64,000 nucleotides of DNA from Clostridia bacterium (GCA_017456555.1 JAFTJF010000011.1:35831-99830); one strand, 5' to 3'. Positions 35,552 through 48,986 are shown, counted from the first letter of the stretch. Made by a program: numbers and translations. The notes: generated from the letters alone by a model not told the origin.

Positions 35552-35645
35552 TGTGATTTGGGGACGGAGACAAAAATCATTCTTTAGCCAAAAAATTTAA
35601 AAAATGGATTTTGGGATGATTTTTGTCTCCGTCCCCAAATCACAA
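35552..35645. repeat. Palindromic MITE/REP-like element, copy 1 (29-bp terminal inverted repeats)
   Basis: TGTGATTTGGGGACGGAGACAAAAATCAT ... ATGATTTTTGTCTCCGTCCCCAAATCACA. Second copy at 46597-46681. Confidence 0.85.
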
Positions 35646-42780: not shown

Positions 42781-44547
42781 ATGAAAGGAAACATGTACAG
42801 AACATATAAGTGTTCAGAATTACGTGAAAAACACGTAGGAGAAGAAATTAAACTAGCAGGATGGGTAGACACAATAAGAGATTTAGGAGGAGTTCTATTT
42901 ATTGATTTAAGAGATCAATATGGTGTAACTCAAGTAGTAGTTTCAGGAGATGAAGAAAAAGTTGAATTTGCCTCAAAAATACCAACTGAATCTACAATAT
43001 CTGTTTCAGGAAAAGTAAGATTAAGAGATGAAGAAACAATTAACTTAAAATTAGAAACTGGAACAGTAGAATTATTTGCAGATAAAATCGAAATTTTAGG
43101 TAAAAGAACAAAAGCTTTACCATTCGAAATTGAATCAGACAGAAGTGTTAGAGAAGATTTGAGATTAGAATACAGATTTTTAGATTTAAGAGCAAGAAAA
43201 AACTTAGAAAATTTAAAATTAAGAGCTGAATTAATTCAATTCTTAAGATTAAAAATGATAGAGCAAGGATTTTTAGAAGTTCAAACTCCAATCCTTACAA
43301 GTTCATCACCAGAAGGTGCAAGAGATTATTTAGTACCAAGTAGAATGTACCCAGGAAAATTTTATGCACTTCCACAAGCACCACAACAATTTAAACAATT
43401 ATTAATGGTTTCTGGAATTGATAAATATTTCCAAATAGCACCTTGTTTTAGAGATGAAGATTCAAGAGCAGATAGATCTCCTGGAGAATTCTATCAATTA
43501 GATATGGAAATGGCTTTTGCTACTCAAGAAGATGTATTTTCAGTAATGGAAAAAGTAATGTATGATACATTTACAAGATTCTCTGATAAAAAAGTTGCAG
43601 AATATCCATTCCCAAGAATTCCATATGAGGAAGCGATGCTTAAATATGGTAGTGATAAACCAGATTTAAGAAACCCATTAGAAATAAAAGATGTTACAAA
43701 CATTTTTGAAAAAATAGATATAAAAGTATTTAATGGGAAAATCGTTAGAACAATTACACTTCCAGAAGGAGCGGCTGTAGAAAGATCTTTCTATGATGGT
43801 ATGACAGAATTTGCTATAGAAGATTGTAAAGCAAAAGGTTTAGCTTGGATAAAAATATTAGAAGATGGAGAATGGCAAGGTCCAATAGCTAAATTTATTG
43901 ATGAAGAATCAAGAAAAGAATTCATGAAACAAACAGATACAAAAATCGGAGATAGTGTATTCTTTATTGCAGAACATAAAGGAATTGTAGAAAAACTAGC
44001 TGGAGAAATAAGAAAGGAAATTGGAAAAAGACAAGGATTAATAGATGATTCAGAATATAGATTCTGCTGGATAGTAGATTTCCCAATGTATGAATTAACA
44101 GATAGCGGAAAAATTGATTTTTGTCACAACCCATTTTCGATGCCACAAGGTGGATTAGAAGCGTTAACAACTAAAGATCCATTAGATATTTATGCATATC
44201 AATATGATATAGTTTGTAACGGAATAGAACTTTCTTCTGGTGCTGTTAGAAACCATGATCCAGAAATCATGATAAAAGCATTTGAAATTGCAGGATATAC
44301 AGAAGAAGATATTAAAACAAAATTTGCTGCATTATTTAAAGCTTTTCATTATGGAGCACCACCACATGCTGGAATTGCACCAGGTGTTGATAGAATATTA
44401 ATGCTTTTAGCTGGAGAAGAATCAATAAGAGAAGTTATTGCATTTCCAATGAACTCAAAAGCACAAGACCTTTTAATGGGAGCGCCAGGAGTTGTTACAG
44501 AAAAACAATTAAGAGAAGTTCATATTAAGCTAGATATAAAAAAATAA
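42781..44547 (+). CDS. aspS: Aspartate--tRNA ligase (bacterial type, 588 aa)
   Basis: OB anticodon-binding domain, class II motifs (FRDEDSRADRSPEFYQLD, GIELSSGAVRNH, GIAPGVDR) and the bacterial insertion domain. Confidence 0.95.
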   Translation: MKGNMYRTYKCSELREKHVGEEIKLAGWVDTIRDLGGVLFIDLRDQYGVTQVVVSGDEEKVEFASKIPTESTISVSGKVRLRDEETINLKLETGTVELFADKIEILGKRTKALPFEIESDRSVREDLRLEYRFLDLRARKNLENLKLRAELIQFLRLKMIEQGFLEVQTPILTSSSPEGARDYLVPSRMYPGKFYALPQAPQQFKQLLMVSGIDKYFQIAPCFRDEDSRADRSPGEFYQLDMEMAFATQEDVFSVMEKVMYDTFTRFSDKKVAEYPFPRIPYEEAMLKYGSDKPDLRNPLEIKDVTNIFEKIDIKVFNGKIVRTITLPEGAAVERSFYDGMTEFAIEDCKAKGLAWIKILEDGEWQGPIAKFIDEESRKEFMKQTDTKIGDSVFFIAEHKGIVEKLAGEIRKEIGKRQGLIDDSEYRFCWIVDFPMYELTDSGKIDFCHNPFSMPQGGLEALTTKDPLDIYAYQYDIVCNGIELSSGAVRNHDPEIMIKAFEIAGYTEEDIKTKFAALFKAFHYGAPPHAGIAPGVDRILMLLAGEESIREVIAFPMNSKAQDLLMGAPGVVTEKQLREVHIKLDIKK

Positions 44548-44694
44548 ATTTAATTTAATAATATAAAAATTACTAATAAAATTTAATTTTTATATTAATT
44601 TTGAAAAAGCAGTTTTTCTTTAGAAAAGACTGCTTTTCATACTGTTTGGTGTAAAAGGAAACTATAATAAAATTTACAAAAAAGGAAATTTTAT

Positions 44695-44729
44695 GTTGAC
44701 AAGCAAAAAAAATCGTGCTAACATTTTAA
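44695..44729 (+). promoter_or_regulatory. Promoter of the leader-peptide / ABC transporter operon
   Basis: TTGACA (44695-44700), 17 nt, TGcTAACAT. Confidence 0.55.
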
Positions 44730-44760
44730 TATAGAAAAAATCAAAGGAGAATTATTTTTT

Positions 44761-44802
44761 ATGAATTTAGTAAAAGGTAACAAACATCATCATAAAAAAT
44801 AG
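44761..44802 (+). CDS. 13-codon leader peptide MNLVKGNKHHHKK with three consecutive His codons
   Basis: RBS AAAGGAGA 10 nt upstream. CAT CAT CAT at 44785-44793. The stop codon abuts the first of several mutually exclusive hairpin segments. Confidence 0.55.
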   Translation: MNLVKGNKHHHKK

Positions 44803-44864
44803 CTTGTGTCTTAGAATATATTAGGCACAGGCTTTTGATGATGCTTGTGCCTTTAGTGTTTTTA

Positions 44865-44915
44865 AGAGCCTTAAAGGTACTAGAATAAATCTAGAATACC
44901 TTTAGGGCTCTTTTT
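44865..44915 (+). terminator. Attenuator terminator
   Basis: 15-bp stem AGAGCCTTAAAGGTA / TACCTTTAGGGCTCT followed by TTTTT. It lies between the promoter/leader and the transporter genes. Confidence 0.75.
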
Positions 44916-45131
44916 GTATACCAAAATCAATTTTACAAATAGCGCGCAAAATAAAATTGATTTTTGCAAGTTTTATGATGAATTTAAAATTATAAAAATA
45001 GAAATATAAAAAAGAGAGGGAATTAATAAAATTCTTACTTTGGTTTTGAAATAAATTTATTTAATAGATAAATTTAGATGATAAAAAAGAAAATAAATTA
45101 TTTATTAAAAAGAAAAAATGGAGGTAATATT

Positions 45132-45932
45132 ATGAAAAATATGGTAAAAGGAATAATTGCAGTAGTTGCAGTTTTTATAATTGTTGTAGGAATATTTTAT
45201 ATGAATAGAGATACAGAAGGAAATAATGAAGATACATTAGTGGTTGGATTAGATGATAGTTTTCCACCAATGGGATTTAGAAATGAAAATAATGAAATAG
45301 TTGGATTTGATATTGATTTGGCTAAAGCAGTAGCAGAAGAACTAGGGATGGAAGTTAAATTTCAACCAATATCATGGGCTTCAAAAGAACAAGAATTAAG
45401 TTCTGGAAATATAGATTGTATTTGGAATGGATTTGCATATAACGAAGAAAGAGCAGCGACAATGACATTAACAGATCCATACATAAAAGGAGAAAACTAT
45501 TTTATATTAAAAAATGGTAGTAAAGTAACATCTCAAGAAGAATTAAAAGGAAAGAAAATAGGAGTTCAAACAGGTTCAATACAAGCACAAGACTTAGAAA
45601 AATCTGAATTTGGAAAAGCAGTAGAGATAATACAATATGGTGATAATTTAACAGCCTTTATGGATTTAGAAACAGAAGGAATTGATGCATTATTTTGTTC
45701 TAACATCATTGGAAACTATTTAATAACTTCAAAAGGAAAAGATTATGAAACTATTGCCTCAGAAAATATTACAGTATCAAATGGAAGTGTAATTGCATTT
45801 AAACAAGGTAATACAGAATTAAGAGATAAAATTCAAAATGCATTAATAAGATTAGAACAAACTGGAAGTTTAGATAGTATTTCAGAAAAATGGTTTGGAA
45901 AAGATATGATAATAATTAATGAGGTGAAGTAA
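45132..45932 (+). CDS. Polar amino-acid ABC transporter substrate-binding protein
   Basis: Signal anchor, then GLDDSFPPMGFRNENNEIVGFDIDLAKAVA..IDCIWNGF. RBS GGAGGT before ATG 45132. Confidence 0.88.
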   Translation: MKNMVKGIIAVVAVFIIVVGIFYMNRDTEGNNEDTLVVGLDDSFPPMGFRNENNEIVGFDIDLAKAVAEELGMEVKFQPISWASKEQELSSGNIDCIWNGFAYNEERAATMTLTDPYIKGENYFILKNGSKVTSQEELKGKKIGVQTGSIQAQDLEKSEFGKAVEIIQYGDNLTAFMDLETEGIDALFCSNIIGNYLITSKGKDYETIASENITVSNGSVIAFKQGNTELRDKIQNALIRLEQTGSLDSISEKWFGKDMIIINEVK

Positions 45933-45933
45933 T

Positions 45934-46584
45934 ATGAATTTAGAACAGACAATAAATGTAGCGAAAATACTATTTTCTGGAATAGGAGTATCACTTCAAA
46001 TATTTGTTTTAACATTCATATTTTCAATACCACTTGGAATTATAGTTGCAGTTCTTAGAAATTCAAAATGTAAAATAATTTCATATTTGATGAAAGGATA
46101 TATTTTACTAATTCGTGGAACTCCAATAATGCTTCAAATTATAGTTGTTTACTTTTGTCCTTATTATATGTTTAGAGTGAGTTATGACAGATTTGCCGCT
46201 ATAATAATTGCTTTTGTAATTAATTATGCAGCTTATTTTTCAGAAATATTTAGAAGCGGAATTAATAGTATTCCAGATGGACAAAAAGAGGCAGCATATA
46301 CTTTGGGATTTAATAAAGTTCAAACATTTTTCTTAATAATTTTACCACAAGTTGTGAAAATTATTTTACCATCAATGTCTAATGAGGTTATTTCTCTTTT
46401 GAAAACAACTTCACTTGCTCAAATTATTGGTGTAACAGAAATGTTTGCGTTAGCACAAAAACAAGCAAGCTATAATTTTTCAATAATTCCTTTAGTACTA
46501 GCAGGAGGTTATTACTTAATCTTAGTATTTTTCGTATCAATATTATTTAATAAGGCAGAGAAAAAATTGGAGTATTATAGTTAA
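45934..46584 (+). CDS. Polar amino-acid ABC transporter permease (His/Glu/Gln/Arg/opine family)
   Basis: EAA-loop-like block EAAYTLGFNKVQTFFLIILPQ and five TM segments. Confidence 0.92.
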   Translation: MNLEQTINVAKILFSGIGVSLQIFVLTFIFSIPLGIIVAVLRNSKCKIISYLMKGYILLIRGTPIMLQIIVVYFCPYYMFRVSYDRFAAIIIAFVINYAAYFSEIFRSGINSIPDGQKEAAYTLGFNKVQTFFLIILPQVVKIILPSMSNEVISLLKTTSLAQIIGVTEMFALAQKQASYNFSIIPLVLAGGYYLILVFFVSILFNKAEKKLEYYS

Positions 46585-46596
46585 TTAAATTGGGAT

Positions 46597-46681
46597 GATT
46601 TGGGGACGGAGAAAAAAATCATTCTTTAGCCAAAAAATTAAAAATAGATTTGGGGATGATTTTTGTCTCCGTCCCTAAATC
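46597..46681. repeat. Palindromic MITE/REP-like element, copy 2, intercistronic inside the ABC operon
   Basis: GATTTGGGGACGGAGAAAAAAATCAT ... ATGATTTTTGTCTCCGTCCCTAAATC. The central loop TCTTTAGCCAAAAAAT.. is shared with copy 1. Confidence 0.85.
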
Positions 46682-46697
46682 CTAAAGAGGTGAGAAA

Positions 46698-48986
46698 ATG
46701 AATGTTTTAGAAGTTAAAAATTTAAGTAAAAAATTTGAAAATATAGAAGTAATAAAAGATGTATCTTTTTCTGTAAAAGAAGGCGAAACATTAGTAATAT
46801 TAGGACCTTCTGGGAGTGGAAAATCTACACTTTTAAGATGCATAAACAATTTAGAAAAAATAGATTCAGGAAATATTATTATAAACGAAAAAGAAATGAT
46901 TAAAGAATATAAAAATAATAAACTAGTTTACAATGATAAAGAAATTTTGAACAAAATAAATTTAGACACAGGAATGGTATTTCAAGATTTTAATTTATTT
47001 CCACATTTATCAGTTAAAGAAAATATAACAATAAGTTTGATAAATGTTTTGAAAATGTCAAAAGAAGAGGCAAATAAAAAAGCTGATGAAGTCCTTGAAA
47101 AAATGGATTTAAAAGAAAAAGAAAATTCTTATCCGTGTGATTTATCAGGTGGACAAAAACAAAGAGTTTCTATTGCAAGAGTTTTAGCAATAAATCCTAA
47201 AATTATTTGTATGGATGAACCAACTAGTGCTCTTGATCCAGAACTTGTTGGTGAAGTCTTGAAAACTATAAAACAATTATCTAAGGAAAATAGAACAATG
47301 ATAATAGTAACTCACGAAATTAAATTTGCAGAAGAAGTTGCTGATAGAGTTATATTCATGGATGGTGGGATTATTGTGGAAGAAGGTAAACCTGAAGAGG
47401 TTATAAAAAGACCGCAAAAGCCAAGAACAAAAGAGTTTTTGAAAAGATATATTAATTTTGAGGTGAATGATTTGAAAGAATTAGATATAGAAGAAAACGA
47501 ACCAAGAGAGGTAATTGAATTTTTTAAAGAAATAAGTGATATTCCAAGAGAATCTGGAAATGAAGAAAGGATAAGAGATTATCTAGTAAATTTTGCAAAA
47601 GAAAGAAATTTAGAATATTACACAGATAAATATTTTAATGTAATTATTAGAAAAGAAGCTTCAGAAGGATTTGAAAATGAAGAAATTCTAGGATTTCAAG
47701 CTCATACAGATATGATTTGTGAAAAAATAGAAGGAAGTACACATGATTTTTCAAAAGATCCAATCAAATTATATCAAGACGGTGATTTTATAACAGCTAA
47801 TGGAACTACTTTAGGTGCGGATAACGGAATTGGTGTTGCATATATGCTTGCAATTTTAGATTCAAATAAAATCAAAGGTCCTAAAATAGAATGTATATTT
47901 ACAACTCAAGAAGAAACAACAATGATTGGCGCTAAAGAAATTGATGAATCTCAAATTAAATGTAGAAAAATGATTTCCTTAGATAATGGAAAACAAGGAA
48001 AAATGGTTATAAGCTCTGCAAATTGTATGGAATGGTTTGGTGAAATTAAAACAGAAAAAATAGATTTACTAGAAAATGATTTGACTTTATTTGAGCTTAC
48101 TTATTCTAATTTTATTGGTGGACACTCTGGTGGAAATATTGGTGATATAAAAAGAGGAAATCCTATTAAACTTGGAATTGAAGTTATAGAGAATATTGAT
48201 GAAATTTATATTCAAAGTTTAGAAGGTGGAAGCAGAGTAAATGTAATTCCAAGAGACTTTAAAATTTGTTTTTGGGCTAGAGAAAATGAATATGGAAAAA
48301 TGAAAGAAAAAGTAAATAAGCAAATTAGATTTTATGGCGAAGATGTTAATATAAAATTAAATAGGAGTGATATAAAACTAGGAAGAGAAAATAATGAGAA
48401 AGATATAGAAAATGAGCTATATGAAAATAATGATATAAACATAAAAGAAAATAATAAACAAAAAGAAATTAGAAAAGTTTATAGTAAAAATATAACTAAA
48501 AAAATAATTAATTTTGTAAATTCATTTGTAAATGGTGCAATCGAATATGATGATAACAATAATGTTGTTTTATCAGCAAATTTTGCAGCAGCAAAATGCT
48601 TAGAAAATTCTGTTAGATTTGAATATTCTTTAAGAGCAAATAATTTAAAATTGAGAGATAAATATTTAGAAAATTTGAGAAAAATTGAAAAAGAAAATGA
48701 TATAAAAATATCTTGGGAACAAGAATTAAAAGGTATTGAGCCAGATTTTGAAAATGAATTAGTAAAAAAATGTTCAATAATATATAAAGAAATTTTTGAT
48801 GAGGAAATGGAATTAAAAATTTCACAAGGTGTTGTTGAAGGTGGATTTTTTAAATACAAAATTGAAGATTTAGAATATGTATGTATTGGACCAAATACTT
48901 TTGATGTTCACAGTCCAAAAGAAAGAGTTTCTATAAAATCTATGCAAGTAACATGGGAATATATTAAAAAAATCATATTTTCTTAG
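46698..48986 (+). CDS. Amino-acid ABC transporter ATP-binding protein continuous with an aminoacyl-histidine (Xaa-His) dipeptidase PepD (M20C) in one 762-codon ORF
   Basis: N-terminus: GPSGSGKST, LSGGQKQRVSIAR, MDEPTSALD. C-terminus: FQAHTDMI, HDFSKDPI, GTTLGADNGIG, GGHSGG, GPNTFDVHSPKERV. No in-frame stop at the junction. A possible internal start TTG 47472 follows GAGGTG. Confidence 0.85.
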   Translation: MNVLEVKNLSKKFENIEVIKDVSFSVKEGETLVILGPSGSGKSTLLRCINNLEKIDSGNIIINEKEMIKEYKNNKLVYNDKEILNKINLDTGMVFQDFNLFPHLSVKENITISLINVLKMSKEEANKKADEVLEKMDLKEKENSYPCDLSGGQKQRVSIARVLAINPKIICMDEPTSALDPELVGEVLKTIKQLSKENRTMIIVTHEIKFAEEVADRVIFMDGGIIVEEGKPEEVIKRPQKPRTKEFLKRYINFEVNDLKELDIEENEPREVIEFFKEISDIPRESGNEERIRDYLVNFAKERNLEYYTDKYFNVIIRKEASEGFENEEILGFQAHTDMICEKIEGSTHDFSKDPIKLYQDGDFITANGTTLGADNGIGVAYMLAILDSNKIKGPKIECIFTTQEETTMIGAKEIDESQIKCRKMISLDNGKQGKMVISSANCMEWFGEIKTEKIDLLENDLTLFELTYSNFIGGHSGGNIGDIKRGNPIKLGIEVIENIDEIYIQSLEGGSRVNVIPRDFKICFWARENEYGKMKEKVNKQIRFYGEDVNIKLNRSDIKLGRENNEKDIENELYENNDINIKENNKQKEIRKVYSKNITKKIINFVNSFVNGAIEYDDNNNVVLSANFAAAKCLENSVRFEYSLRANNLKLRDKYLENLRKIEKENDIKISWEQELKGIEPDFENELVKKCSIIYKEIFDEEMELKISQGVVEGGFFKYKIEDLEYVCIGPNTFDVHSPKERVSIKSMQVTWEYIKKIIFS

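Follow-up and report, generated by a model that had tools for sequence, protein, structure and literature searches.

A probable histidine-salvage operon of uncultured gut Clostridia: a predicted His-codon leader attenuator ahead of an ABC importer and a PepD dipeptidase

A 64,000-nucleotide stretch of DNA from a Clostridia bacterium (GCA_017456555.1, JAFTJF010000011.1:35831-99830), here called the window, contains at positions 44695-48986 an operon for an ATP-binding cassette (ABC) importer, whose ATPase is joined to a dipeptidase of the PepD type, behind a short leader open reading frame (ORF) with three consecutive histidine codons; all features of the operon given below lie on the plus strand. 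The operon probably serves histidine salvage under ribosome-mediated transcription attenuation, importing Xaa-His dipeptides for hydrolysis by PepD. Within this proposal it is very likely, judging from sequence and conservation, that the leader is a His-specific attenuator, and nearly certain that PepD belongs functionally to the transporter; the response to histidine, the ligand and the hydrolysis of the imported substrate are what we infer from these parts. An earlier note on the same DNA had listed a His-codon leader, a substrate-binding protein (SBP), a permease and an ATPase joined to a dipeptidase. Each was recovered in our analysis, the leader with a ribosome-binding site (RBS) of its own and the ATPase and dipeptidase as domains of one protein.

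The leader lies behind a sigma-70-type promoter (44696-44724) with a -35 element TTGACA (44696-44701), a 17-nt spacer carrying a TG extension and a -10 element TAACAT (44719-44724), which scored 10/12 with the TG. Equivalent TTGACA...TATAAT promoters are found 5' of the leaders at related loci (L091, L096, L098 and L103). The RBS and leader ORF together occupy 44743-44802: an AAAGGAG at 44743-44749 is followed by an ORF of 13 codons (44761-44802) with the product MNLVKGNKHHHKK, in which the His codons fall at 44785-44793 and the UAG stop codon at 44800-44802. In-frame CAYCAYCAY occurs six times on the two strands of the window, and of these only the leader's copy belongs to a short ORF that has an RBS of its own and is flanked by a promoter and a terminator.

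The leader RNA is predicted to fold at -66.4 kcal/mol (z = -8.9), and 0 of 200 shuffled sequences folded equally well. In the minimum-free-energy structure an anti-antiterminator spans 44773-44854, its outer helix joining leader-coding RNA at 44773-44792 to 44836-44854 and enclosing an inner hairpin, A:B, formed by 44801-44811 with 44823-44833. Segment B has an alternative partner in segment C (GCUUGUGCC, 44843-44851). When the fold is ended before the 3' arm of the terminator and a ribosome is masked at the first His codon, an antiterminator pairing (44847-44880) appears between GUGCCUUUAG (44847-44856) and UUAAAGGUAC (44871-44880), the latter being part of the terminator 5' arm. The intrinsic terminator itself (44864-44915) has a 21-bp stem of 44864-44884 with 44890-44912 and a U-run at 44911-44915. 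Pairing statistics were drawn from an alignment of 33 class-A leaders, one of two structural classes. In this alignment the outer anti-antiterminator helix is paired in 86% of cells, the A:B hairpin in 95% and the terminator in 94%, with compensatory double changes at six terminator pairs (36 cells). The 9-bp core of the antiterminator is paired in 88-100% of the sequences, and the changes within it are all G-U/A-U neutral.

Masking the RNA as a ribosome would do gave the expected alternatives at two positions. Placed at the first His codon, the ribosome allows A:B and the antiterminator to form in RNA ending before the terminator 3' arm; placed at the stop codon, it leads to B:C pairing and leaves the terminator arm free. 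The region combines a tandem-codon ORF with an RBS, an intrinsic terminator and mutually exclusive pairings, as is typical of leader attenuators. The compensatory changes in the terminator and the conservation of the antiterminator and anti-antiterminator pairings speak for the attenuator that the earlier note had suggested.

Comparison across genomes points to histidine as the amino acid that would be sensed. Among uncultured gut Clostridia, including Candidatus Scatovivens, 44 species-level genomes were found to have the PepD-linked operon, and a short ORF with HH or HHH stands at the same position in all 39 PepD-linked loci with sufficient upstream DNA. The comparison of gene neighbourhoods that the earlier note had proposed thus finds leader, transporter and PepD together in 39/39 such GTDB-species loci, and in metagenome matches as well. 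For the metagenome scan the leader-RNA pattern was built on purpose without the His codons; a His run nevertheless lies just 5' in 15/15 matches, the transporter is present at every match having downstream sequence, and the scan recovered this operon type only. Although 13-19 of the 33 class-A sequences leave the pairing partners of the His codons unpaired, the codons are invariant, and synonymous CAC is used in four leaders (L084, L087, L092 and L095); therefore, the constraint is on coding. Regulatory codons are for His in each of more than 50 leaders from both structural classes, and the leader ORF, RBS, His run and pairing segments are retained among species with SBPs of only 57-87% identity.

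The second class of leader (class B, ending ..FLNQLHHHRRSL) has another sequence and the same topology. At five loci (L006, L009, L010, L014 and L026) two full attenuators stand in tandem 5' of the SBP gene, each comprising a terminator and a leader ORF that contains a His run; in L014 the second of the leaders reads HYH. This recalls a tandem arrangement of T-boxes that has been reported for operons of His transporters. When the window and the leader region were scanned against Rfam, only tRNAs and sub-threshold noise came back, and the Rfam His_leader family (RF00514) gave no match at its gathering score nor at E <= 10. A generic terminator scanner found the terminator of the upstream gene aspS and missed that of the attenuator because of its internal bulge and loop.

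The genes behind the leader encode a polar amino acid (PAAT) ABC importer, with a family-3 SBP, a HEQRo-type permease and an intact ATPase in one operon. The SBP (45132-45932, 266 aa) matches PF00497 with E = 2.4e-39; the permease (45934-46584, 216 aa), of the polar-amino-acid type, matches PF00528 and the HEQRo permease domain TIGR01726 (72 bits against a cut-off of 42.2). The ABC ATPase domain makes up residues 1-255 of the fusion (46698-47462) and matches PF00005 over residues 20-177, with Walker A, signature, Walker B and H-loop motifs intact and invariant; its model superposes on ArtP (2OLJ) with a TM-score of 0.95 at 52% identity. The NCBIfam equivalogs HisJ, HisM and HisP score far below their cut-offs for this transporter, and for the SBP and permease NCBIfam places cystine and glutamine binders slightly above HisJ. 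The SBP begins with a hydrophobic segment (45132-45230) without a lipobox Cys, and is probably held by an uncleaved signal anchor, not as a lipoprotein. Separately, the ATPases of PepD-linked operons carry an insertion of ~30-45 residues (..IINEKEMIKEYKNNKLVYNDKEILNKINLD..) at residues ~55-90, window positions 46860-46970, which is missing in 703-aa fused variants (e.g. P0100) and in the 210-aa ATPases of the sister clade described below.

The earlier note had held that the SBP does not by itself give a specificity; its pocket does carry such information. The best natural solved relative of the SBP is 4OHN (E = 1.2e-38), described as a Streptococcus pneumoniae histidine-binding protein. The pocket was compared by alignment to E. 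coli GlnBP, whose reference sequence was checked against 1GGG/1WDN and differed at one residue. We take R75 of GlnBP to contact the ligand carboxylate, and T70 and D157 its alpha-ammonium group, as in the 1WDN structure. In the 41 PepD-linked SBPs T70 is replaced by Ala or Gly, D157 by Ser (once Gly), Y185 by a small residue and S120 by Gln (40/41), with Arg at R75 in 41/41. The corresponding positions in 14 relatives from the genome scan that are without PepD hold Ser/Thr, Asp, Tyr/Phe and Ala/Ser/Gly, with Arg in 13/14, and in four PDB proteins Ser/Thr, Asp, Tyr/Phe and Ser/Gly, with Arg. The window SBP retains this arginine as R107 and has A102 and S190 in place of Thr and Asp. The Arg, Asp and Ser/Thr that make a pocket for a free alpha-amino acid are accordingly not found together in the window SBP or in any of the 41 PepD-linked SBPs.

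As the side chains for the alpha-amino group are lost and the carboxylate Arg is kept, the ligand is probably an N-substituted histidine, e.g. Xaa-His, and on balance Xaa-His is the cargo that the pocket alignment suggests. Between histidine and His-containing dipeptides, which the earlier note had offered as alternatives, the SBP would favour the dipeptides: its relative is 4OHN, and the alpha-amino subsite is lost in PepD-linked operons only. An Rfam scan of the 14 PepD-less relatives found no His T-box upstream. Two T-boxes lie 3' of the ATPase among these relatives and serve other genes, and the loci are uninformative on the ligand.

A sister clade without PepD helps to place these changes. 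Its first member, L091, came from the leader-pattern scan and has the same leader scaffold with a canonical pocket; Ser, Asp, Tyr and Ala occupy the four pocket positions in 120/120 of its closest relatives. In this clade (L091 and L096-L105, one SBP cluster alone occurring on 88 contigs) the leaders MNLNIIIKNEHHKI, MKIEVIFRNEHHKN and METKIIIRNEHHKN, or a class-B leader, stand in front of an SBP-permease-ATPase operon in which the ATPase is plain, at 210-213 aa, and PepD is absent. In one lineage hisD (TIGR00069, 556 bits) follows the transporter, 39 nt after the ATPase gene in L103 and L104, and a hisC-like fragment lies 5' of the L091 operon. At the GlnBP-aligned pocket positions D41, D42, W82, N99, G100, Q146 and S149 the two clades are identical. 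On the simplest reading of these sequences, the ancestor would have been a His importer under a His attenuator, and the PepD-linked clade would have kept the side-chain and carboxylate subsites while opening the alpha-amino subsite; it would therefore bind His with a substituted amino group, as in Xaa-His, the class of substrate that gives PepD its name. The sister clades form a matched pair, an amino-acid binder and a probable dipeptide binder, which differ at four pocket positions.

ATPase and PepD are encoded in the window by a single unbroken ORF of 762 aa (46698-48986), whose residues 263-762 plus stop (47484-48986) form the PepD domain, an M20C aminoacyl-histidine dipeptidase. TIGR01893 (aa-his-dipeptidase) matches residues 269-760 with 377 bits against a cut-off of 343.75. 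In PepD the metal ligands are H80, D119, E150, D173 and H461, the catalytic residues D82 and E149 and the lid residues H219, N260 and R369 (PMC6271292). Alignment of the fusion to PDB 3MRU, which reproduced the published numbering, maps the metal ligands to H336, D375, E406, D429 and H738, the catalytic residues to D338 and E405 and the lid residues to H476, N515 and R646. All ten are invariant in 14 diverse homologues, and by these residues the PepD domain is catalytically intact. The earlier note had taken Xaa-His specificity from the family assignment; the TIGR01893 match and the active site bear out the assignment, and the family name proves less than was claimed for it.

An AlphaFold model of the fusion shows two confident modules (pLDDT 85.7) joined by a flexible linker at 255-257; with a pTM of 0.58 the domain folds are usable and the inter-domain geometry is not trustworthy. 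The PepD half matches PepD structures at TM-scores of 0.81-0.86 and the ATPase half matches ArtP/HisP at 0.90-0.95, and a structure search found no solved chain spanning both halves. As the N-terminus of PepD lies opposite its active site (PMC6271292), fusion at this end is sterically plausible. An Asn/Lys/Glu-rich insertion at residues 562-590 (48381-48467), in the lid region of PepD, is predicted to be disordered (pLDDT 32-38) and is absent or far shorter in most homologues.

The gene order SBP-permease-ATPase-PepD is kept at every locus. The fusion that the earlier note described holds for the window and does not extend to a general rule: a frame check found PepD fused to the ATPase in 25/51 loci and encoded as a separate adjacent gene in 26/51, beginning 0-150 nt 3' of the ATPase gene (L106 is one example). 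The best 120 protein matches to the fusion are all full length, from which it had seemed that the fusion was universal; this idea was dropped upon the frame check. Several split loci differ from fused ones merely by an in-frame stop. The two frames may be parted by a stop in the linker alone (L003, L008, L020, L021 and L024) or may be different or overlapping (L007, L022 and L025). Fused and split states are interleaved among leader classes and close relatives, indicating repeated fusion and fission or, alternatively, stop-codon readthrough. Among 1.84 billion representatives at 50% identity, the fused architecture occurs in just one cluster; a candidate second cluster, P0242, proved to be a tandem double ATPase.

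Given the above, the operon may work as follows. Transcription would start near 44731, and a ribosome would translate the 13-codon leader. With ample His-tRNA(His), translation would run on to the UAG stop, where the ribosome covers segment A; B would then be left to pair with C, and terminator formation would end transcription at about 44915. In the absence of translation, the leader-coding RNA would sequester segment C, likewise giving termination. When His-tRNA(His) is scarce, the ribosome would stall on CAU-CAU-CAU and hairpin A:B would form; segment C, through GUGCCUUUAG, would then be available to the terminator 5' arm as a pairing partner, allowing readthrough by RNA polymerase. From the readthrough transcript the cell would make an ABC importer of the polar-amino-acid family that depends on a binding protein. 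This SBP, descended from a histidine-type binder, would most likely capture histidine with an acylated amino group (Xaa-His, possibly carnosine-like), and the PepD domain on the ATPase would hydrolyse the imported dipeptide in the cytoplasm, releasing histidine.

Several observations weigh against this proposal. The leader has only two or three His codons, and the antiterminator, while conserved across the 33 aligned sequences, shows no compensatory change among them. When the ribosome mask was set at His codon three plus 13 nt, the fold gave B:C and not the antiterminator, which makes the stall geometry uncertain. For the proteins, an alignment with E. coli GlnBP is the source of the roles given to the pocket residues, NF011600, the equivalog model for E. 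coli PepD, scores 187 bits against a cut-off of 991, and the PepD family takes in broad-specificity dipeptidases. Between the terminator and the SBP gene there is a conserved 5' untranslated region (UTR) with a second hairpin, and further control is possible there. Lastly, the PepD-linked lineages are uncultured and known from metagenome-assembled genomes.

The rival explanations differ in how much of this evidence they can absorb. The operon could encode an ordinary HisXYZ-type importer of free histidine, with PepD a co-regulated general dipeptidase for peptides entering by other systems and the fusion serving co-expression only. We think this unlikely, while giving it real weight. The transporter family normally carries free amino acids, the nearest natural solved relative binds His, and the sister clade has the same leader with a canonical pocket and no PepD, so free-His import under this leader clearly exists. 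However, all 41 PepD-linked SBPs are without the alpha-ammonium Asp and Ser/Thr, which are kept in the 120 sister-clade, 14 other and 4 PDB proteins, and it is left unexplained why the pocket change should go so strictly with PepD. It has also to be considered that the short ORF arose by chance and that the hairpins are an ordinary aspS terminator or a small RNA, with no attenuation. The absence of a matching Rfam family would fit this, but aspS has its own terminator at 44605-44637, the pattern scan came back with this operon type alone, and the ORF, RBS, His run and pairings persist across species with SBPs at 57-87% identity; this explanation is scarcely credible.

Two further rivals concern the cargo and the role of PepD. 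A cargo other than histidine, some N-substituted amino acid or peptide such as Cys-Gly, a gamma-glutamyl compound or an opine-like one, would make the His leader a general link to starvation. Such a cargo would sit well with the slightly higher NCBIfam scores of cystine and glutamine binders for the SBP and permease, and with the known breadth of PepD enzymes, which also cleave non-His dipeptides, that of E. coli being a broad-specificity dipeptidase. It is nonetheless improbable in view of the His codons in all of the more than 50 leaders, in two structural classes, and of a side-chain pocket identical to that of a sister clade adjoining hisD. Slightly less probable again is that PepD serves the ATPase as a C-terminal domain for regulation or sensing, allowing trans-inhibition by His or a dipeptide as in MetN or MalK. 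Importer ATPases with regulatory domains at their C-termini are well known, and MetNI and MalK are among the structural neighbours of the ATPase half. A sensor, however, would not account for the invariance of all seven metal or catalytic and all three lid residues, and a free-standing PepD in half of the loci ill suits an obligate regulatory domain. The import of Xaa-His for hydrolysis by PepD is the explanation we retain.

A more ambitious version of this explanation can be put forward only tentatively. The importer and the dipeptidase might form one machine, with a PepD dimer under the ATPase dimer, hydrolysis of Xaa-His coupled to transport, at the point where the dipeptides exit the permease, and possibly feedback of His on the ATPase. 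The SBP would in that case be a dipeptide binder made by deletion of the alpha-amino subsite, and its leaders, with those of the sister clade, would constitute a large undescribed family of His attenuators controlling uptake, and not synthesis, in AT-rich gut Clostridia. The GC hexamer of the UTR hairpin would be a possible site of RNA-RNA or RNA-protein contact.

This hairpin belongs to a further conserved stretch of 5' UTR, ~215 nt long, that separates the terminator from the SBP gene. It spans 44923-44964, with a stem of 44923-44935 and 44952-44964 and, in its loop, the sequence GCGCGC (44942-44947), which occurs nowhere else in the window. The hairpin is present in 25/30 class-A loci (among them L001, L004, L005, L011, L016, L017, L020, L029, L035, L037, L040 and L041) and absent from class-B and tandem-attenuator loci. 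Its AU-rich stem varies by species with compensating changes, the arms being swapped in L004, and its loop holds a self-complementary GC-rich 6-mer flanked by A's: GCGCGC, GGCGCC, UGCGCA or GUCGAC, with CUGGCCAG in the loop at sister-clade loci. Stability is weak, with z = -1.4 to -3.5 at most loci and -7 at L041. The A-rich flanks are strand-asymmetric, suggesting an RNA feature, and a resemblance to kissing-loop dimerisation hairpins is offered only as an idea. At several loci the 5' arm takes in the U-tract of the terminator. Two known types of site were considered for the hairpin and set aside: the published HisR consensus cacTTTAnnnnnnTAAAgtg (PMC9413887) does not fit, and HutP-type UAG repeats were ruled out by the many loops without UAG. 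Nearer the SBP gene, a conserved pyrimidine-rich motif, AAATTCTTACTTTGGTTTTGA at 45028-45049 and ..TCTCTTAAA.. or ACTCTCTT elsewhere, lies 40-100 nt 5' of the SBP RBS, with equivalents in L001, L004, L020 and L096. A small hairpin just before AAGGAGG often includes this motif, in its loop or on its 3' arm, and the motif may be a translational or stability element.

Within the operon, the 113-nt spacer between permease and ATPase genes holds a palindromic element of ~95 nt, GGGACGGAGA...TCTCCGTCCC (46590-46685; -42.5 kcal/mol, z = -5.5). A second copy, nearly identical, is found between genes elsewhere in the window (35552-35645), and close relatives have an 18-nt spacer without the element, which looks like a small REP/MITE-like repeat inserted within the operon and outside its conserved part. 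The operon is preceded by aspS (42781-44547) and followed by lysS, which has its own promoter. The neighbours within the window are housekeeping genes, and no his genes were found among them.

The proposed attenuator shares with the enterobacterial his leader (RF00514) a short leader with tandem His codons and mutually exclusive hairpins, and in both, here by proposal, charged tRNA-His would be sensed by ribosome stalling. The enterobacterial leader has 7 His codons and controls biosynthesis, whereas the present leaders have 2-3, precede an importer in a Clostridia host and add the inner hairpin A:B, giving a three-way competition of A:B, B:C and C:3. Among the Firmicutes, 17 genomes with candidate His leader-peptide attenuators have been tabulated, all before his biosynthesis operons (Ashniev et al. 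2022; PMC9413887), in the Bacillus cereus group, Peptostreptococcaceae and Erysipelotrichales, and without HisR and T-box control (PMC9413887). Those leaders have 3-5 His codons with terminator and antiterminator as here; the target here is instead a transporter operon, in another lineage. Neither PepD nor any dipeptidase occurs in that paper, and His leader-peptide control of a Firmicutes transporter was not found tabulated in the literature consulted.

The closest transporter may be HisXYZ*, an ABC transporter under HisR or T-box(His) that is often the sole His-regulated locus in His auxotrophs (PMC9413887). It likewise unites a binding protein, a single permease and an ATPase in one operon that responds to His, as is predicted here. 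The present operon differs in its predicted leader-peptide attenuation, in the added or fused PepD and in the dismantled alpha-amino subsite. If HisXYZ* is a polar-amino-acid-family importer, the two also share their family. From the solved PepD enzymes (M20C; PDB 3MRU and 2QYV), which share the fold and all metal, catalytic and lid residues at ~25-35% identity, the protein described here is set apart by an ABC ATPase N-terminal to PepD or encoded just before it, and by the disordered 562-590 insertion.

Partial precedents exist for the combination of importer and peptidase. In streptococci, as cited in PMC9239160, the dedicated SBP GshT lets the cystine ABC importer TcyBC take up glutathione (Vergauwen et al. 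2013). An SBP there feeds a peptide to an amino-acid importer, as proposed here, but the cargo is glutathione and there is neither a linked peptidase nor leader-peptide control. GshT is a family-3 SBP and TcyBC a polar-amino-acid-family importer. S. aureus GisABCD-Ggt encodes an importer together with a hydrolase acting on its cargo (PMC10355420). Gis and Ggt are unfused and serve sulfur nutrition, whereas ATPase and PepD are fused in the window and histidine is the proposed nutrient. Peptidase-containing ABC exporters (PCAT), with an N-terminal C39 protease in the same polypeptide, are likewise transporter-peptidase fusions, but they export. In the literature we found no description of an importer ATPase fused to a cytoplasmic dipeptidase, of a carnosine importer, or of this combination of His leader, importer and PepD.

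The two classes of His attenuator, absent from Rfam and sometimes in tandem, would mean that leader peptides in Firmicutes control uptake as well as biosynthesis. It is unusual for the ATPase of an importer to be fused to an enzyme that acts on the cargo, and the coexistence of fused and split forms is well suited to testing what the fusion contributes. The lineages concerned are abundant uncultured gut Clostridia of ~27% GC, from human, mouse, rabbit, chicken and ruminant samples. Their operon suggests that histidine is drawn from dipeptides ending in His, e.g. products of protein digestion or carnosine, and such a dipeptide route could aid the design of culture media and the prediction of cross-feeding for these bacteria.

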